A stretch of 63,998 nucleotides of DNA, counting the filler, from Porpidia crustulata (lineage: Eukaryota): the NCBI GenBank assembly GCA_964255105.1. It is 20 parts of 20 records of this genome, joined end to end, with 100 filler letters (N's around TTAATTAATTAA, not from the genome) between each part and the next. Parts side by side here need not be neighbours in the genome. Positions count along the whole stretch, not along the records: positions 1 to 3,169 come from CAXUWE010002340.1; 19 more parts are not named here. One strand, written 5' to 3'. The notes beneath the pieces are model-generated. The model was not told the origin of the DNA and did no database searches. It saw only the letters and a list, made by a program, of their open reading frames with translations. Below are positions 1-63,668 of this stretch, in pieces. How positions within the stretch are numbered: position 1 is the stretch's first letter; each line of letters opens with the position of its first letter. Both the position numbers and the translations under genes were made by a program.

Positions 1-524
1 AGCAGGTGGTGGCTGCAGTACCAAAAGCAGTGTTTTTGGGGCTTCCCCGCCATTTATTATTTTTTTTTTGGATTTTCATTTTCGGACCCACCATTTTGCA
101 CATGACGATACTTGAGATAGTTTTATCTACTAGACTACGGCAGTTGCTACAATCGGGTAAATTACTAATTCAACATTCAATAATTACGTTCATCAATTGT
201 AGTATGTAAAAATTGATTTCTTGAGTTATTACTCAATCTGTCTGAGTAAGTACAGTGAGAAGGAGATTACAGAAATGTCTCAAAAACAAATATTTTATTA
301 GAGCTCTCCTTCTGGTAAGCAATCTAGCAACTCCTGAATGCTGGGGGGAAAAAGAATCAAAAACTTCAAAAGTGTTGAAAATAGAGCATCTAGGTCCTAC
401 GACTAGGTGTTCGGGGTGCTTGCGCTAGTAAGATCACCTGACCTCCAATATATAGACACGTAGCTAGACCGACTCAATCCACAACCCTTTTCACCCTAAG
501 TCAGCCCATCATATATACTTCAAC

Positions 525-529
525 AAAAA
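525..529 (-). terminator. RNA polymerase III oligo-T terminator of the tRNA gene
   Basis: TTTTT on the minus strand, separated from the tRNA 3' end by 7 nt. Confidence 0.75.
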
Positions 530-580
530 GTTTACATGATGAGGGCGAGACTCGAACTCGCGCGGGTTTCCCCACTAGGA

Positions 581-597
581 ATTATTGTTAAGAAAAG
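581..597 (-). other. Canonical tRNA (endonuclease-type) intron at position 37/38
   Basis: CTTTTCTTAACAATAAT one base 3' of anticodon AAG; its CTTAAC pairs with GTTAAG of the anticodon loop. Confidence 0.9.
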
Positions 598-616
598 CCT
601 TAACCTAGCGCCATAA

Positions 617-676
617 CTGCATAGTTATGTTAGATTGAAATATAGCTTGCAATACTGGGGTGCCCCTGGGACTGAC
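617..676 (-). other. Spliceosomal-type (GT-AG) intron inside the tRNA-Leu D-loop
   Basis: GTCAGT donor, CTAAC branch site 12 nt before the intron end, terminal CAG, 60 nt long; removal restores the D-arm exactly. Confidence 0.85.
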
Positions 677-1423
677 CCAACTCGGCCACCTCACCTGACA
701 TCAATATCCATGTCGTATTATCAATTATTTTGTTATAACTGAGCTAGCCCCGCCACCTCGCCCGCATATCTGACGAGGGCCAGACTAGCCGGATGCAGCA
801 CGCTTTACTCAATGCAGTGATCTACCCTTCGGATGCCTTCATGGATAAAATTTGCAATGTATAGTTCAGAGTTCTATTCTACAGAAAGACCTCGAGTTGG
901 ATTGCTCTAGCTAACAGAAGGGGATTTGAGTCGGATATTGCTATGTTGTAATCCAGCTGTAGATATCACGGAATTCATTCATCTGCTCTAATGAGCGTTC
1001 GTCATGGCAGGCCTTATGCTCATTGAAACTTGGATCACTCTTCTACTGGAATTTCAGATCGAAGAGTAGTGTGGTGTATGGCGCATAATCTCTGCGGTAT
1101 GTTGCAGCTCCTCGGAATAATAGATTGATCATCTACTTCTATGACCAAGGGCTTTAGCTACTAGAAAGCTCGACCGCGAGGTAAGTCGTAGTCTTTCCTC
1201 GGAATTCGACTCTGTACATTCATCAGCCGCGGTGGACGGCGGTGCTTTCCTCGAGGGTCTTGCATTCCATCCATGCGTGAAGGCGCTTGATGGGTGTATT
1301 TAAGACTGCGTTGCAACATCTGGGCTGCTTTTCTCCTACATCATGCTCCCTATTTCCAAATTACCTCTACGAAATACTTATTTCTTTTCAATGCTATTTT
1401 GACCACGACATTATTGAGCGGCT

Positions 1424-1798
1424 TTGTCAAGAACTCTTGGTATCATTTATATACATCGGGCGTGCCTTGAGATCCCTGCAGACAGTGAGACCGCGGTGGC
1501 CTCACTACCGGCTGCAGCACGAGCGTCTACCGATCCTAATGATCCTGTATATGATTTTCTCCCGGAACATGTTTCACTTTCACGACCTGGAATCCATGCT
1601 TATGAGTGCAAAGCCTACAAGGTAGATGTAACTCCTGAGACTCTTCCAAGTACCGGCTCTAATAAGATCTTTAGGGATCCGGATTCCGATATGGGACCTC
1701 AGAAGTGGGATCTCTTTGCCAATGCTGATGAAAACTATCAGTTTCGAAATCCACTAGCATCAGATTCGTCGAACTATATCAGAACTACACGCATGTGA
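1424..1798 (+). CDS. Hypothetical protein or gene fragment
   Basis: Protein-like ORF with no recognised domain; the start is uncertain. Confidence 0.2.
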   Translation: MSRTLGIIYIHRACLEIPADSETAVASLPAAARASTDPNDPVYDFLPEHVSLSRPGIHAYECKAYKVDVTPETLPSTGSNKIFRDPDSDMGPQKWDLFANADENYQFRNPLASDSSNYIRTTRM

Positions 1799-2500
1799 TG
1801 AAGACGTTGTTCAAAGTGGAGTAAACATTGAGCGTTGATGGTAGTTGCCGGCCGAAAGTTGCGGATACTTCCTTCTTCCCTTATATTTGATGCCCTAAAT
1901 TCTTTGGGCTTTGGTATTTCACTTTTCTTGACCACAAAACCTAAAATAGTAGTGGGCGCACGTACCAAGTCAAAGACAGTGGTAGCGATCTATCCCTTCT
2001 GGATACCACACCTCACGCGTTCCACGATGGTCCAAGATCTGCAAGTATATAGAACTTGAGTGAGAGCTGAGGAATGATGCCCTTGTCTTTTATTTTGTAT
2101 CTACGGATATCAATCTCACTGGCTCCGTGAAACGCGGTTTCCTGGATTTTCGACCCGATTTCGAATTACCTCCAGTAACCTGCTCATCCGTAGGTATTGC
2201 GTGATTGCTCACAAGCTTACGCGGCTCAGCTCAGGAAACATAGCTTGAGCTCCTTTCCCTATCGATAAAAGGTGCGTCCTGCCCATCGTTCCTTCTCACA
2301 ATTATCTTTTCTCCCATTCTCAACAGTACCTGCTATACAATCTTCAATCATCTTACCATAGCAACATCCCCATACTCGCACTTCGGTAATCACTACATCC
2401 GTTCATCTCAATCTCAAGATTTCTTCATCGCCCGCCCTTGAACACTGTCTCCCCTTCTTTTCATCTACATCCCGAGACTGCACAACGCCGTTCAAGCATC

Positions 2501-3169
2501 ATGTCTGTATTCCATCTGTTCATGATGCGGATCATCCTGCTGCTTGTAACGTTTGCCAGTCTTGCTCATTCGGTACCGATCACACAAAAGCGCTGCATTA
2601 TATTCTGCCATGATTCCGGTCCTCATATCACATACGGATTCAGACCAGACGCGCTACGTGAACTGATGGTCCCCTATACACCAGACGGACTTCTAGTCCA
2701 ATTCAATCTCATGGCACAATACGCGGCTGCGTCATATTGCCAAGAGAACAATGTAGCCAGCGGTTCCAAGATCACCTGCCACGCGGGAAATTGCAAAGAT
2801 GTGGAAAAGTCCGATGCGGTTTCGCATTATCCCTTTCAGAACGGACCTGGTGATATCACCGGCTTCCTTGCTGTCGACCATACCCACCAACTCGTTGTCG
2901 TATCCTTCCGAGGTGCCATATCCGATGCAAACTGGGCCTCAGCCCTTAATATCATCAGGGTCTCTTCCGATCTATGCAAACACTGCAATGTCCACAAAGG
3001 TTTTTGGGAGACCTGGACAGAGGCACGATCAATGGTCCTTGATGCTGTTAAAGAGTCCATGACGCAGTTCCCAGAGTATCGAATCGCTGTTACTGGCCAC
3101 TCTCTTGGCGCTGCAATGGCCACATTCGCTGCTGCGGATATCCGTAAAATGGGCGACTATTTCCTTAAC
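2501..3169 (+). CDS. Secreted lipase, class 3 family (3'-truncated by contig end)
   Basis: Signal peptide, AQYAAASYC, VVSFRG lid region, VHKGF and the catalytic TGHSLG nucleophile elbow. Confidence 0.9.
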
Positions 3170-3269
3170 NNNNNNNNNNNNNNNNNNNNNNNNNNNNNNN
3201 NNNNNNNNNNNNNTTAATTAATTAANNNNNNNNNNNNNNNNNNNNNNNNNNNNNNNNNNNNNNNNNNNN
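3170..3269. other. Artificial contig-joining spacer (N...TTAATTAATTAA...N); same spacer at 6439, 9700, 12956, 16208, 19456, 22689, 25920, 29151, 32380, 35596, 38806, 42014, 45217, 48412, 51601, 54783, 57944, 61102
   Basis: Identical 100-nt block with a six-frame stop linker; flanking contig lengths fall monotonically. Confidence 0.98.
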
Positions 3270-5860
3270 GGGTGGTGGTATAGGTGGCGAAGAGGGAGAT
3301 TACCCAGGTGAGTTTGCTGTGGATCTGTGTGGGTGGAGGGTTAGATTTTTTGGTGGGGAGTGGAGGAGGAGTTTGGGCGGAAGGGAAAGGGGAGACTAAC
3401 GCGGAGGAGTTTGGAGTTCATGAGCATGCACTCTTTCAGACATGTATCTAGGAAATCCACATGGTCTTCCATTAATTCGTCCACGGTCCGCTCTACCTTT
3501 TGCGTCGAGCCGTCCCTCCCAGTCGTGCTGTCCCCGTTGACGCGAGCCATGAGGTTATGCCAATTCGGCTCGATGACTTCCGAGGTGCAGTAGTATGTGA
3601 ATTGCTGGACGAACACCAGCATCCGCGATCGCAACGTCCAGGCCCTGCGTTTCCAGCGCTCGAGCTTCGGATCGCCGCTGCGGTGCGTCCAGCTGAGGAC
3701 TTTGTGGTGGTCTTCCCAGCTGCTGACCAGGAGGCCTTCGAGGTGGCGCATGGAGACAAGGTAGCGGAATAGGATCTGGTATCTCAGCACGGTTTTGCTG
3801 CTGATGACGAGGGAGAGGGGGAAGGGAACGGAGAATTTGAACTCGAGGGCTTCGTAGCCGGTCATGCTGCTGCTGTCGTGGTCGTCGATGGATGATGGCG
3901 GTTGGGTGGCTGGGGCGCGGTAGCGGTCGAGGCTTTCATCCGGGGCGTCCTGGTCGATTCCTCGGACATTGACGACGCCCATGAGGAATTTCGTGAGGCC
4001 GACGTCGTTCATCTGCACTTTGACGTCTTCTTTGAAAGGATCGAGGGCGGCGACGCTGCCGGGTTGGCGGAGGACGAGATCGAGGAGGGATTGGAGTTTG
4101 CCGACGTTGACTGCGCGGAAGGGCTTTCTGAGCTCCGAGGCGCTGAGATCGAGGAAGTAGGTGAAGAAGTCGGAGCGGTCGAGGAAGAAGTAGTGTTTCA
4201 TTGAGCGGAGTCGATCTGATAAGGCGTGTGTGGTAAGTAGGAGCTTGAGAAGGGACGAGTTGGCGTGAGCATAAGCAGCGTTGACATTGTCGAGGAATTG
4301 GGGATCGTCAAAGGATTTGGGAACATCTTTGACCTCCATGCCGACGTCTACTCCACCGCATTCTCGTACCACATTGAGATATTTCCCTGCAAGTAGCACT
4401 TTATCCTTGACTCCTTCCAGTTGTGGCGGCACGTCATTGTCTCGAATTGTATATCTCTTTTCCCAATACTCGTCGGTGTAGTCTTCCTCTAGCTTCTCCC
4501 GCTTAATGCTCTGCTGTTCTTTGATCAGAAATTCGCCATGGGGGTCTTTGATACCGCCATGATGCAGCCATTCATTCAGCATGGCCATGTACGGCCGGCT
4601 AGCATCTCGTAATAAAGTCTGAAGCAAAGTCCTTGCTGCGGGATCTCCAGACATGAAAGAAAGGCGTTCTGTCAATAAACGTAGGACATTTCCTCCTTTA
4701 TAGACTTTGGTCACCATACCCCCGGGTGCTAGATCGCCACCATCCCGGAGCTGCTCAAGAATATTGTCGACATCGTCAAAATCTGCCGAGTCGTCTAGAT
4801 CCTCTTCCAGTAAAGAATTCTTCCGCAGGATTTCCTGGCCAAGTGTATAGATTTGGAACATCATTCGACTTGTTGGTAGCGTATGTAAGTGCAACAAATG
4901 CAACGTGAACGAAGGGTTGCTGATTACTTGATTTTCTAATTGTGCAATGAGCACAAGATAGTCCTTCAGCAATTTACGAATCGAGGCGCACAATGCATGG
5001 TTGATAGCACCAAATGCTTCTCTACTCTGCATCTCCACAAATGCCTCGACTGCGCTATAATACGTGGCTATCTTTAATATCGAGTTGGTGAGATCTCGTA
5101 GACTAGGATCTAAGCCTGGTAATATGCGATAGCTTGGTCCTGCGAGACGCTCCTTTTCCTCGGTAGGTTTATATGATTCTTCGAATTGAATATACTGTCC
5201 TTCATATCCCATTAGTACGAACAAGACATCATCAAGTATGGCATCTTCTTGTTCAGTGGATGTTAGTTCTTTTAGCGGTTTGGGCTCAAGCGATTGAGGT
5301 AGTGAAGATGAGCGAGGGGGTTTTGAAACTCGAGTGGCGAGAGGTGCTGTTGTAGCTTCTGTAAGGGTCGCTGCTGGCTTCCATGGCGCTGAGAGGCGAG
5401 CGACTTAGTATAGCCTTCTGTAGATACTACTTTCTGAGAACCGCAACCTACGTGGTGGTTCCTTTCCCTTTTTCTTAGGTAGTGGCACGGCTTGCAATGT
5501 TGGACTTCCATGTCCTGGTGACTTCCTAGCCTCTGAATTCCATATTCCCTCGTTATCGCTATTAAGAACTTTTGCGGGACTCCGCACCTGAAGTCGGAAA
5601 CTCTCTTTTGTTGTAACAATAACCCTCTCCTTCTGCTTTTCGGTTGTAGTTCGCGTTGAGCCATGAGCCTTTTCCTGACCAGAAGGTTTCCTTCGATGAG
5701 GCGCATTGCTGGCGGAATCGTCTGGATGAATCTCGTCATAGGAGTCAGGTCGCCCTTTAGCTCCAACACGAGACGAGGGAACTCGGGGTTTCGCGCTTGC
5801 TGTTGCGGAGGTTCGTCTATCATTATTCGGCGCACTCCGAGAGTTGACGGTGGTGGACAT
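3270..5860 (-). CDS. SPC97: Gamma-tubulin complex component GCP2 (Spc97/Alp4), 3'-truncated
   Basis: DVLFVLMGYEGQYI, YTDEYWEKRY, LAGKYLNVVREC, SMKHYFFLDRSDF, CTSEVIEPNW; GT-AG introns 5389-5451 and 3325-3400. Confidence 0.92.
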
Positions 5861-35939: not shown

Positions 35940-37479
35940 TCACCGATACCCAATCCTCTTACTCGGACTCTCGCCCCGGTATTCATACCCGATTCTCTTA
36001 TTCGGGCTTTCCGTCCTTCCCCTGTAGTCTAGGCCTAACCTTCCGTACGGCGTCTGATCGTGATACTGAGGATAGTATTGCTCGTGTCCTCCACCAACAC
36101 CACCACCGCCGCCGCCATAGGCCAATTGTTGTTGCTGCTGCTGCATCTGTTGCTGGGGAAAGTAATTCGGGGGCTGAGGGTCGTGATGATCGGTTTTGCG
36201 GCTGAGGAAGGAGAGAGCGAGGTTGGAGACGATGCCGGTGCCGAAGAGGAGGGAGAGGGAGAGGATCTGTTTTATGTTAATGGGGTCGATAAGGAACGCT
36301 ATGATTCGGGTGAATAAGAAGCCAGGACGTACCACGGTCTTCCAATGCAGCGGCTCAAAGAAACTGTTCAATACACCTGCGAATGTGTACGCGCTTACGC
36401 TCGCCCGTCCCACGAGACTGGGGTCTTGCTTTATGCATTTCTCCCAGTTATTGCACACAGCCTCCATTGCCGGCACCCGCGAGTTGGCATCGCATTTGTT
36501 ATCTTTGTACTCGCGCGTGCATCCCGCCATTTCGGCCATGATCTCGTGCGCAGCCTCGCGAGCTTTTTCATCAACGTCGGACTTGATCGTTGACCAGAAC
36601 GAGTAGATAATATACATGCAAAAGGCGACGAGGAAGAAGTTGAGCAGGACTTGGGCGTAGTGGCATAAGATGTGAGGGAGGCGGGGGTGACGCTCGATGA
36701 AGTGGAAGATGGAGGGAATGAGGCCCATTTCGTAGGGTGGAGGGCTCTGGGGCGTTGGGTNNNNNNNNNNATTTTGTCGTGATCGAGATCGGGAACGGTC
36801 GTCTAGGTCTTCGGAGTCGTAACCATGACCACCGCGGCGATAAGCGTGACGGACGTCTCGGTCAACATCGCGGCGGCGCTTTTTGTTGACTTTGCGAACG
36901 GTGGCTTCGATGTAGGGTTTGCGGGCTATTTCACCGCGGCCAGAGGTGACGTACTTGCCGAAGATGCCTGAAGAAAGGGGTCTCTTCTCCGGGGATTCGG
37001 ACCTGGAACCTTCGAATCTGATCATTGCGCCGTCGACATTTGGAAGATTTAGTTGTCTAGGAGGCTCGGGCGTGTCTTCAGTATCACCGTTTGCAGGAGA
37101 AGATTGATTTTCTGGACCGGAAGAGAAGTCGGTGTCGATGATGCGTCTCTGAGGGGTGGTGAAGGAAGGGTTGCGAAACTGGACCGGAGGCTTCATGGCG
37201 GGTGTTGAAGGAATTGAGAAGGTCTCTAAGCCAGGATTTTGTAGAGGGGGAAATGAGGTCTTTTTCGGAGAGTCAAAGCGATCATAAGAGCCTGTAGAAC
37301 ATGTCAGTGAGAACATCCCAAATCAAAGGTTATGGTTACTGACGTTTCTGTCCGCCAAAGCCGCTGCGTCCTTGACGGTCGCCGGCCATTGTCTTCATGA
37401 AAGGTGAGTCTGATCTCGCAGGACCGTGACCTTGTTGCCATTGGAAGTCCATAGGACTTTCGTTAGATCTAATATCCAT
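35940..37479 (-). CDS. BRL1: Nuclear envelope protein Brl1/Brr6 family
   Basis: ESPMDFQW N-terminus, TM helices flanking C...YKDNKC...RVPAME..C..WE.C; internal 10-N gap. Confidence 0.85.
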
Positions 37480-62010: not shown

Positions 62011-63668
62011 ATGGTTCCGACCGAGGACGCCCTCGCTTTGAAGAAGAAGGGCAATGAGGCCGTTGCCTCCCATGATTGGCTGAAAGCTATAGAATGTTAT
62101 ACGCAAGCTATTGATCTAGATGATAAAGATGCCACGTTCTATTGCAATAGAGCTCAAGTTCGTCCACACATCAATGCTCATCTCGAAATGATTTACAGTC
62201 CTACAACTAATCTGACGGTGAACGCAGGCGAATATAAAGCTGGAGGCCTACGGTTATGCTGTTTCCGACGCCTCGAAAGCTATAGATCTAGATCCTTCCT
62301 ATGTCAAAGTCAGTTTCGGATCTTGAGAACACCTTCGATATCATTCTGACGTAATCCGTAGGCATTTTACAGAAGAGCTGTCGCCAATACTGCTATACTA
62401 AATTCCAGGAATGCTTTAAAGGATTTTAAGACTGTCGTGAAGAAGGAGCCCAATAATAAAGACGCCAAGTTGAAGCTTGCCGAATGCGAGAAAATAGTGC
62501 GTAGGGTAGAATTTCTAAGAGCGATAGAAGTAGGGGATCCACCATCAGCGTTTGAAGGACTTGATATCGACTCAATACCAGTTGAAGGCAGCTATGATGG
62601 ACACAAGCTTAGCAATGAAATGACGCAGGAGTTTATCGACGACATGATAGTGAGGTTCAAGGACGGGAAGAAGCTCCACCGCAAATATGTCTACCAAATA
62701 ATTTCTGCTGTCCATAAAATCGTCTATGAGGAGCCTACGATGGTAGAGATGGAGGTTGCAAAGAAGCACAAATTGACAGTGTGTGGGGACACACATGGAC
62801 AATTCTTTGACCTTCTCGAGATATTCAGACTCAATGGCTTCCCTACTGGTTCGCATGGCTACCTTTTTAACGGTGACTTCGTGGATAGAGGTTCTTGGTC
62901 AACGGAGATTGCTCTCCTACTCTATGCATACAAATGGTTACATCCAAGTACCTTCTTTCTAAATCGTGGCAATCATGAAACAGACGACATGAACAGAGTC
63001 TACGGTTTTGAAGGCGAATGCAAAGCAAAATATACTGAGAAGGTGTTCAAGCTCTTTTCCGAGTCGTTCTCTGCGCTGCCTCTTGCCACCCTGATAGGCA
63101 AAAAATACCTTACGCTTCACGGTGGCTTATTTTCGGATGACAAGGTCTCATTGGATAACATTAGGAAATTGAATCGACATCAGCAGAGACAACCCGGGCA
63201 ACAAGGCCTGATGATGGAAATGTTGTGGACAGATCCCCAGACTATGCCTGGCAGAGGGCCCAGCAAACGTGGCGTAGGGCTGCAATTTGGACCGGATGTC
63301 AGTAAGAGATTCTGCGAGGCCAACGGGTTGGAGGCTATCATACGAAGCCATGAAGTGCGCATGGAGGGCTATGAGGTTGAACACGACGGGCGTTGTATCA
63401 CTGGCAAGTTTGGTAAGATTGACAGATGGAATCGGCGCTAACATTCTTACAGTATTTTCAGCACCCAAGTATTGCGACAGCACAGAGAACAAGGGTGCCT
63501 ACATCAATATCGGCCACGAGTTAAAGCTTGACTTCCATAAATTCGACGCTGTACCGCATCCCGACATAAAGCCCATGGTAAGCAGTTCTCTCCCTCAACT
63601 CGCAGATGGACGGCTAATAGTCCTCGTCACAGGCTTACGCACAGAGTTCTCTGATGTCGATGACATAA
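62011..63668 (+). CDS. PPT1: Serine/threonine protein phosphatase 5 (TPR plus PPP domain), multi-exon
   Basis: N-terminal TPRs, [38 protein letters not shown]; ends [11 protein letters not shown]. Confidence 0.96.

Follow-up and report, generated by a model that had tools for sequence, protein, structure and literature searches.

The window analysed here, a stretch of 63,998 nucleotides of DNA from the fungus Porpidia crustulata, contains on its minus strand a gene for tRNA-Leu(AAG) that is interrupted twice. With both inserts included, the gene measures 159 nt (695..537), from G1 at position 695 to the discriminator base A73 at position 537, and the same extent is returned by ARAGORN when introns are allowed (c[537,695]). 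Exon 1 (695..677, 19 nt), delimited by reading the sequence against the cloverleaf, provides the 5' strand of the acceptor stem, U8, the 5' strand of the D-stem and the D-loop as far as G18 G19; 19 nt plus a leader is a very short 5' exon, which counts against a spliceosomal reading of the insert that follows it. The A-box TGGCCGAGTTGG lies within exon 1 (688..677) and terminates at G19, directly abutting the first insert, a 60-nt sequence of spliceosomal type (676..617, 45% G+C) that interrupts the D-loop and whose longest T run is three. Exon 2 (616..598, 19 nt, as placed by ARAGORN) comprises the end of the D-loop, the 3' strand of the D-stem, G26, the 5' strand of the anticodon stem and the anticodon loop with the anticodon AAG (601..599), its last base being G37 (598). 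The second insert (597..581) is a canonical 17-nt tRNA intron between positions 37 and 38, reported as such by ARAGORN ('Intron Length: 17'); it contains a run of four Ts, and its CTTAAC is complementary to positions 31-36, anticodon included. Exon 3 (580..537, 44 nt) begins with position 38 and completes the cloverleaf with the 3' strand of the anticodon stem, the long variable arm, the T arm carrying the B-box AGTTCGAGTC (558..549), the 3' strand of the acceptor stem and A73. A run of five Ts (529..525), a possible terminator for RNA polymerase III (Pol III), follows 7 nt past A73.

Integrity and surroundings of the tRNA gene

When the 60 nt of 676..617 are excised, ARAGORN recognizes a class II tRNA-Leu(aag) of 82 nt with a 17-nt intron. 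The resulting cloverleaf is fully paired (acceptor stem 7/7, D-stem 4/4, anticodon stem 5/5, T-stem 5/5, with the long variable arm paired as well), and U8, A14, G18 G19, A21, U33, G37, G53 T54 T55 C56, A58, C61 and A73 can all be read off it. Apart from the young pseudogene considered below, nothing in these data points to a tRNA pseudogene or a tRNA-derived SINE: the stems are unbroken, the invariant bases are kept, and exon 1 together with the upstream flank occurs at single-copy depth. The A-box, the B-box and the T run after the gene make up the signature of a type-2 Pol III gene. The two boxes are about 118 nt apart because the two inserts lie between them, a spacing that TFIIIC should tolerate. 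An earlier note on this DNA had described the 17-nt intron pairing with the anticodon, the A-box ending exactly where the large insert starts, the intact B-box, the lack of T runs longer than three in that insert and the complete pairing of all stems, and each of these observations is confirmed on the minus strand. Taken on its own, the absence of runs of four or more Ts from 60 nt is weak evidence. The broader proposal of the same note, two introns requiring two different splicing machineries, holds at the level of sequence, where one gene does combine inserts of two kinds, its tRNA and Pol III features being intact.

The gene is visible only to certain searches. A split-tolerant scan of the whole window recovers the locus at 695..537 as its sole tRNA gene, and ARAGORN run without introns finds no gene in the window; an Rfam scan of the window likewise yields no tRNA, nor any other RNA family at the gathering score. 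Since genes of this kind are missed by both of the latter approaches, tRNA gene sets of fungi may be undercounted. No gene supported by an open reading frame overlaps the locus; a lipase-like gene (2390..3217) and a gamma-tubulin-complex gene (3341..5404) lie elsewhere in the window. For the unspliced locus ARAGORN also offers a poor tRNA-Arg(cct), interrupted at 29/30 by an 85-nt 'intron', which we rejected for its mismatched D-stem, its abnormal intron position and its use of a part of the insert as tRNA body. A stretch upstream of the gene (786..735, minus strand) was compared with the acceptor ends of this tRNA, but its alignment score of 22 is not significant, as the maximum reached in 200 shuffles was 26.

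Downstream of the gene, as part of its context rather than of the tRNA, lies a dispersed repeat of 153 bp resembling a solo LTR or a MITE (373..525), with the terminal inverted repeats TGTTGAA/TTCAACA and 5-bp direct flanks AAAAG at 368..372 and 526..530. Its insertion point is 11 nt downstream of the tRNA gene, and the T5 run consists of the last A of the element and four As of the flank duplication. The terminator postulated earlier is thus present as a T5 run, with the qualification that it was partly built by the end of the repeat and the duplicated flank. In sequencing run X1, which comprises DNA-like contigs, word depth is 700-4000 on 380..516 within the repeat, as against 10.5 on a unique contig (632..880); other contigs of the run stop in the repeat or diverge at its edges. 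The contig at single-copy depth (10.5) is identical to the window throughout exon 1 and the adjoining 45 nt of the insert, although it may share data with the assembly. Positions 533..617 are uncovered in the run, a gap that carries no weight, and no joined form occurs in it.

Splice signals of the D-loop insert

The 60-nt insert begins with the 5' site GTCAGT (676..671), with GT at +1/+2 and again at +5/+6, contains the branch motif CTAAC (633..629), whose branch A (630) lies 13 nt from the insert end, and terminates with the 3' site CAG (619..617). A purine is usual at +3 of the 5' site, and the C at +3 of the insert is a mismatch in this respect. Fold prediction for the precursor places the 5' site in a pairing with the D-stem strand. 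Both points count against the reading as a spliceosomal intron.

To what extent could such signals coincide with the boundaries of a tolerated excision by chance? Among 840 nearby deletions, 138 still give tRNA-Leu(aag), and one of these (676..617) is of the GT..AG form, with about 0.5 expected; the GT..AG pair alone is therefore not beyond chance. The situation differs for the full set of signals (GT at +1/+2, GT at +5/+6, CTAAC at the proper spacing and CAG), for which the insert is unique among the 121,696 60-mers of the window and whose chance expectation, corrected for the 138 alternative excisions, is at most 5.5e-4. The full signal set, and nothing less, exceeds chance at the tRNA boundaries. 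The strict intron motif as such is not enriched window-wide (17 matches, where 20 shuffles average 19.3), and the argument therefore rests on its coincidence with the tRNA boundaries.

These figures bear directly on the reading that the insert is an unrelated piece of DNA, or a misassembly, that happens to resemble an intron. While the 0.5 GT..AG pairs expected among the tolerated excisions and the roughly 19 strict-motif matches per shuffled window show how readily partial resemblances arise, such an accident or artefact is hardly credible when set against the expectation for the full signal set, and the contig of run X1 passing unchanged from exon 1 into the insert also speaks against it, even if perhaps not independently of the assembly. 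The insert ends show neither a target-site duplication nor terminal repeats (inverted ones included), and no second copy of the 60 nt exists within the window. Together with the single-copy depth over 632..676, these observations give no indication of a transposon or an introner-like element either.

Our reference for the introns of the host came from comparison by homology with the solved structures of PP5; 106 ORFs were scanned against Pfam solely to spot split domains, and automatic intron calling by joining ORFs was dropped, its results being too ambiguous. The homology-verified example is a 53-nt intron in a PPP5 phosphatase gene (62309..62361), which starts with GTCAGT, contains CTGAC and ends with TAG. 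The 27-codon exon upstream of it can be aligned with residues 62-86 of PDB chain 4ja7_A, and alignment to this chain resumes at residue 88 with residue 2 of the downstream ORF. The 5' hexamer is thus identical in the tRNA-Leu insert and in a verified intron of the same window, and GTCAGT also opens an intron candidate, defined by the strict motif, in a Brr6-like gene (37343..37292). The 16 strict-motif candidates of the window other than the insert are 47-120 nt long, and at least 10 candidate loci with at least 29 open codons on both sides fall between 47 and 83 nt; a length of 60 nt is therefore typical of the window. In the window's intron candidates CTRAC lies 4-22 nt before YAG. Judged by these features, the D-loop insert carries all the signals that mRNA introns of this genome have, and maturation of the tRNA would then probably need the mRNA-splicing machinery.

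A different kind of enzyme would be involved if the insert were a non-canonical tRNA intron that the tRNA splicing endonuclease or some other nuclease cuts out, the ends being joined by tRNA ligase, as with introns known from D-loops in archaea, Cyanidioschyzon and nucleomorphs. Interruptions outside the canonical tRNA position do exist, being cut at a bulge-helix-bulge (BHB) motif according to the account in PMC3978253. At the junctions of the present insert, however, even a relaxed scan reveals no BHB, which would comprise two 3-nt bulges with the cut sites and a 4-bp helix between them, the best match being a 3-bp TTG/CAG pairing with bulges of 1 and 0 nt, and the motif is also absent from the predicted folds. 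Moreover, a BHB intron has no reason to possess GTNNGT, a well-spaced CTAAC and YAG, and we consider this explanation very improbable.

Proposed transcription and processing of the precursor

Considering these lines of evidence together, we propose, with a rough probability of 0.58, that the 60-nt insert is a U2-type spliceosomal intron within a tRNA gene that shows Pol III features, and that it is removed before the step carried out by the tRNA splicing endonuclease (SEN) and ligase. The locus would accordingly represent a working tRNA-Leu(AAG) gene with two introns that differ in kind. Most likely, Pol III transcribes it by way of the A-box and B-box inside the gene and stops at the T run. 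The nuclear spliceosome would then excise the GT-AG insert, with U1 binding at GTCAGT, U2 at CTAAC, A630 as the branch point and the cut after CAG. Excision would join G19 to position 20 and restore the D-loop, so that G18 and G19 could form the tRNA elbow. The spliceosome would, in other words, act on a Pol III transcript with a first exon of 19 nt and rebuild a D-loop in the nucleus. Only the 99-nt pre-tRNA left behind would presumably be a normal substrate for export and for SEN and ligase, which remove the 17-nt intron.

An alternative way of bringing the spliceosome to this RNA is transcription by RNA polymerase II (Pol II), either of the gene alone or as a part of a longer non-coding transcript, from which the tRNA would be cut out after splicing. 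Recruitment of the spliceosome is normally coupled to Pol II, and about 1.7 kb upstream on the strand of the gene is devoid of a convincing ORF, which makes an unannotated transcript possible. On the other hand, the A-box, B-box and T run constitute the complete signature of a Pol III tRNA gene, the window provides neither an Rfam family at the gathering score nor an ORF-supported gene over the locus, and the case of U6 RNA (see below) shows that Pol II is not required. We regard the involvement of Pol II as improbable.

More serious, if still unlikely, is the possibility that a dead or dispensable copy of the gene gained the intron recently; reverse splicing into a tRNA, then reverse transcription and recombination, would be one route. 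The locus would then be a young pseudogene whose Pol III transcript goes unspliced or is spliced to no useful effect, the tRNA being supplied by intact copies. The splice signals fit this scenario equally well, as they would testify to an intron by origin; undecayed exons are expected after a recent event; and the repeat inserted 11 nt downstream documents that the locus has taken other insertions. Arguing against it are the exact restoration of the D-loop by the excision, with G18 G19 and a normal loop length, the intact A, B and T signals, and the lack of any stem-breaking base among the 82 mature positions. That a recent insertion likewise leaves exons without decay is a point that counts against inferring a spliceosomal pathway, or selection on the locus, from the state of the exons.

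Returning to the spliceosomal pathway that we favour, the precursor and product sizes given in the earlier note (159 nt with both introns, 99 and 142 nt with one of them, 82 nt with none) are arithmetically correct, and its suggestion that the spliceosome acts first is reasonable as an inference. The SEN of budding and fission yeast is located at the cytoplasmic face of mitochondria, as described in PMC10275265, and by analogy a similar arrangement in P. crustulata would let the compartment itself impose the spliceosome-first order. The control point on leucine decoding envisaged in that note is speculation. More tentatively, at somewhat less than even odds, we suggest that the spliceosome might be a routine tRNA-processing enzyme in P. 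crustulata, and perhaps in a whole group of fungi, acting before export, SEN and ligase, with the supply of the decoder of CUU and CUC tied to splicing capacity.

Attempts to find relatives of the gene were unproductive. A pattern scan of metagenomes (A-box, GG+GT, GGCG and a degenerate leucine anticodon loop) matched at least 120 loci, and none of the 120 listed gave a tRNA after trial excisions; the matches listed are G+C-rich chance matches under too loose a pattern, and the five loci below 53% G+C among them include none that is tRNA-like by eye. A tighter pattern with a TTAAGG loop gave four chance matches in genome contigs, all in bacterial MAGs and none of the four a tRNA gene, and no match in viral contigs. 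In the literature searched, outside of which most subscription journals fall, we found no published description of a spliceosomal intron in a tRNA gene, nor a precedent in that literature for efficient action of the spliceosome on tRNA-type Pol III transcripts.

In the sources consulted, spliceosomal introns are treated as a feature of mRNA and Pol II, and tRNA introns as a matter of endonuclease and ligase (PMC12530127, PMC10275265, PMC10485636). If the D-loop insert is indeed spliced, both nuclear splicing systems, the spliceosome and the endonuclease/ligase pathway, would be joined in one molecule, and the activity of the spliceosome on Pol III transcripts would extend from its single well-studied case, U6, to the tRNA class. 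Splicing of the insert would also raise the questions of what recruits the spliceosome when Pol II is absent, how an uncapped first exon of 19 nt is dealt with, and how nuclear surveillance and export tell unspliced from spliced precursors. In addition, it would offer a clean natural system for the study of intron gain in structural RNAs.

Comparison with known systems

Two of the systems worth comparing concern tRNA introns. Archaea, the red alga Cyanidioschyzon merolae and nucleomorphs have tRNA introns outside position 37/38, including in the D-loop, and sometimes several per gene. The tRNA-Leu gene of P. crustulata is similar in being interrupted outside 37/38, in the D-loop, and in having more than one intron. 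The introns of those organisms are, however, defined by a BHB, removed by the endonuclease and not known to have the GT, branch and AG signals, whereas the tRNA-Leu insert has these signals and no BHB. The canonical eukaryotic tRNA introns at 37/38 are cut by TSEN/SEN, the exons being joined by Trl1 or RTCB, as summarized in PMC10485636 and PMC10275265. The 17-nt intron is by its position, anticodon pairing and shortness a plain member of this class; the 60-nt insert differs from it in following G19, in lacking a pairing that would offer the endonuclease its two ends and in having spliceosomal signals instead.

Introner-like elements and introns derived from transposons, as reported from fungi and algae (PMC11282704, PMC5647799), could be the origin of a short, newly acquired intron such as this one. 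Unlike these multi-copy families, the insert occurs just once in the window and lacks both a target-site duplication and terminal repeats, and its first 45 nt occur at single-copy depth.

rRNA genes are not transcribed by Pol II, and yet they, too, may house introns of the spliceosomal type. Such introns have been reported from rRNA genes of ascomycetes (Bhattacharya et al. 2000, via PMC5855946) and from the U1, U2 and U5 genes of Rhodotorula (via PMC5855946). The resemblance to the present case lies in the occurrence of spliceosome-type introns in genes for structural RNAs, all of them fungal. The host RNAs and polymerases are different, and none of the cases as described in that source involves a tRNA or an additional intron of the SEN type.

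The closest precedent for the tRNA-Leu insert is provided by the mRNA-type introns of fungal U6 genes. The intron of the single U6 gene of Schizosaccharomyces pombe is spliced out by spliceosomes (Tani and Ohshima 1989, via PMC5855946), introns occur in U6 genes of many fungi (Canzler et al. 2016, via PMC5855946), and U6 is a Pol III transcript (10.1101/2023.01.27.525755). As far as these sources describe it, the likeness is considerable: a short GT-AG intron with canonical 5', branch and 3' sites sits in a Pol III-type gene for a small non-coding RNA of a fungal host, and a conserved structural core is re-formed only once this intron has gone. The differences are equally clear, the host being here a tRNA rather than an snRNA, and splicing, shown for the S. 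pombe U6, being predicted here from sequence. An origin by reverse splicing is logical for U6 because this RNA is located in the spliceosome's active site, a proximity that a tRNA does not have. Finally, the tRNA-Leu gene possesses, unlike U6, a second intron of the type removed by protein enzymes, so that two machineries would be needed to produce the mature tRNA.

Structure of the interrupted tRNA-Leu(AAG) gene

Read on the minus strand from 695 down to 537, the locus can be laid out as a tRNA-Leu(AAG) gene with two inserts. The 7-nt 5' strand of the acceptor stem starts at 695 and is followed by U8 and G9, and the D-stem strand with the beginning of the D-loop (AGTTGG) extends to 677, ending in G18 and G19. 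Then come 60 nt that are not tRNA sequence (676..617), after which the gene resumes with TTA, the return strand of the D-stem and G26. The anticodon stem leads into a loop with the anticodon AAG (601..599) and G37; a 17-nt insert (597..581) follows. Beyond it lie the remainder of the anticodon arm, a variable arm of 13 nt that includes a 3-bp stem, a T arm with the loop TTCGAGT, and the acceptor return strand with the discriminator A (537).

With introns disallowed, ARAGORN detects no gene anywhere in the window, and the Rfam tRNA family has no match either at a permissive threshold (positions 1..3000) or over the full window at gathering scores. The sole reading of the intact locus by ARAGORN with introns permitted, a tRNA-Arg(cct) with an 85-nt intron, was rejected as poor, having an abnormally placed intron and a mismatched D-stem. 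When 676..617 are deleted in silico, the program returns an 82-nt tRNA-Leu(aag) in which all stems pair and the 17-nt intron occupies the canonical site. A split-tolerant scan of the 64 kb, keyed to an A-box and a T arm together with complementary acceptor strands, also detects this gene alone. An earlier note on this DNA had described an A-box abutting the large insert, an intact B-box, T runs of at most 3 within the insert, a T5 run after the gene, and predicted RNA sizes of 159, 142, 99 and 82 nt. All of this holds, with the A-box at 688..677 and the insert starting at the next base, the B-box at 558..549 and the T5 run at 529..525.

Splicing signals of the 60-nt insert and introns of the host

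The first six bases of the 60-nt insert are GTCAGT and the last three CAG; a CTAAC element places the branch A 13 nt from the 3' end. The GT..AG ends by themselves carry no proof of an intron, because ARAGORN accepts 138 of 840 trial deletions around the insert site, and about 0.5 GT..AG pairs are expected among them by chance against the single one observed (676..617). The full signal set, defined as an initial GT, GT at +5/+6, a CTRAC 8-30 nt before the end and a final YAG, is present among the 121,696 60-mers of the window in the insert only. Its chance expectation, summed over the 138 tolerated excisions, is at most 5.5e-4, an upper bound since the underlying frequencies take in the insert itself and real introns. 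A strict motif of any length (GTNNGT, CTRAC, YAG) occurs 17 times on both strands of the whole window, compared with a mean of 19.3 in 20 dinucleotide shuffles, and the weight of the argument therefore rests on the coincidence with the tRNA boundaries, not on the motif. Chance matches to this motif appear to be depleted in the window: the total is close to that of the shuffles, yet most of the 17 look real, and most are flanked by long open frames.

The gene content of the window is fungal (gamma-tubulin complex protein, Brr6-like protein, COG5, DUF3176, PPP5 and others), and two introns of the gene for PPP5 (protein phosphatase 5) could be placed by homology to solved PP5 structures. A 27-codon exon (62228..62308, plus strand) aligns to residues 62-86 of PDB chain 4ja7_A and residue 2 of the PPP5 ORF (62362..63438, plus strand) to residue 88 of the same chain, so the 53 nt between them (62309..62361) are an intron. 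It shares its 5' hexamer, GTCAGT, with the tRNA insert; its 3' site is TAG, preceded by CTGAC at a distance of 12 nt. The preceding intron, of 70 nt (62158..62227, plus strand), starts with GTTCGT; in both introns the +3 base of the 5' site is a pyrimidine, so a non-purine at this position is in use in the Porpidia crustulata genome. The other 16 strict-motif intron candidates in the window measure 47-120 nt, and those flanked by long open frames, which are the majority, 47-83 nt; one of 52 nt in the Brr6-like gene (37343..37292) also starts with GTCAGT. The insert is typical of these candidates in its length, branch distance and 3' site. Gene anatomy and signals are shown by the sequence, and the observation of the earlier note, two inserts of different kinds in one tRNA gene, is confirmed.

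Two further observations concern protein-coding genes of the window. The N run at about 3170-3260, read as an assembly gap and located where filler joins two records, cuts two reading frames, that of a class-3-lipase-like ORF (2390..3217, plus strand) and that of a gamma-tubulin-complex gene (3341..5404, minus strand), the end of which faces the run. The archaeal C/D-box snoRNA family sR44 gives a weak match antisense to the lipase-like ORF (2378-2432, minus strand; 22.1 bits, gathering score 45, E = 0.018), probably due to chance.

Other origins of the insert and the surroundings of the gene

A bulge-helix-bulge (BHB) intron was rejected: a relaxed helix-bulge search at both junctions yielded nothing beyond a TTG/CAG match of 3 bp, its bulges measuring 1 and 0 nt, and minimum-free-energy folds of the precursor forms contain no BHB-like motif. 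A transposon footprint was likewise rejected, the ends of the insert showing neither a target-site duplication nor terminal repeats; no second copy is present in the window. X1 is the sole public run containing the stretch. One of its contigs, 2.5 kb long and at single-copy depth (10.5), matches with 0 differences from the unique flank upstream of the gene across exon 1 and 45 nt into the insert. This argues weakly against an assembly artefact, X1 being possibly the source data of the assembly, and as far as the contig reaches the insert is not high-copy. A metagenome scan for relatives, with a pattern that fixed about 20 bases and allowed 93 gap combinations, hit at least 120 loci, and among the matches listed 0 of 120 give a tRNA; these are G+C-rich chance matches to a pattern that was too loose. 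A tighter pattern gave four chance matches in bacterial MAGs and none in viral contigs.

Downstream, 11 nt from the gene, lies an element of 153 bp (373..525). It carries terminal inverted repeats of 7 nt, TGTTGAA/TTCAACA, and is flanked on both sides by the direct 5-bp repeat AAAAG (368-530 overall). Short X1 contigs of this element reach a word depth of 700-4000, whereas the unique contig next to it has 10.5, and further contigs stop within the element or diverge at its edges; it is therefore dispersed, either a solo-LTR-like repeat or a MITE. That it inserted beside a tRNA gene calls to mind Pol III-targeted retroelements. The T5 run taken as a terminator in the earlier note consists of the last A of the repeat and its flank duplication. 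Just upstream of the gene (735-786, minus strand), a stretch resembles the 3' end of this tRNA (14/16 identical) and is followed after 7 nt by a 5'-end-like stretch complementary to it, forming a hairpin. With an alignment score of 22, below the maximum of 26 reached by 200 shuffles, the resemblance is not significant and could reflect a decayed tRNA relic or chance.

Possible processing and comparison with known systems

The best-supported reading, which we would put at slightly below 60%, is that the insert is a spliceosomal-type intron and that the tRNA gene around it looks competent for Pol III transcription. The main rival, a young and possibly dead gene copy recording an intron gain, seems to us unlikely. 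Under the preferred reading of a spliceosomal-type intron, the intact A and B boxes would direct Pol III transcription of the locus, which would end at the T run. The nuclear spliceosome would excise the 60 nt; with the D-loop rebuilt, G18 and G19 could join the T loop in forming the elbow. The resulting 99-nt pre-tRNA of normal shape would be treated like any intron-containing pre-tRNA, SEN and ligase excising the 17 nt. SEN resides on the cytoplasmic face of mitochondria in budding and fission yeast, according to a review (PMC10275265); if yeast-like compartments apply in Porpidia crustulata, the spliceosome would act first by compartment alone. The order argued for in the earlier note, spliceosome before endonuclease, thereby gains some outside support. 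The 'control point' on Leu decoding proposed previously is speculation.

Full-text literature searches, which leave most subscription journals outside their reach, returned no description of a spliceosomal intron in a tRNA gene and no paper with the exact phrase 'spliceosomal introns in tRNA'. A 2025 paper on tRNA introns treats spliceosomal introns as a feature of Pol II transcripts, mRNAs among them, and regards the three types of nuclear intron as unrelated (PMC12530127). In 300,000 characters of a review from 2023, 'The life and times of a tRNA', the spliceosome is mentioned once, solely as a contrast (PMC10275265). The closest precedent for the insert is the mRNA-type intron, removed by the spliceosome, in the single U6 gene of S. 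pombe; the same source also reports U6 introns with canonical signals at varied positions in many other fungi and cites spliceosomal introns in U1, U2, U5 and rRNA genes (PMC5855946). U6 is itself described as a Pol III transcript in the abstract of another study (10.1101/2023.01.27.525755). Judged from sequence, the insert would belong to a known kind, spliceosomal introns in small-RNA genes of the Pol III type, with tRNA as an apparently new class of host and two splicing systems in one gene as a probable new twist.
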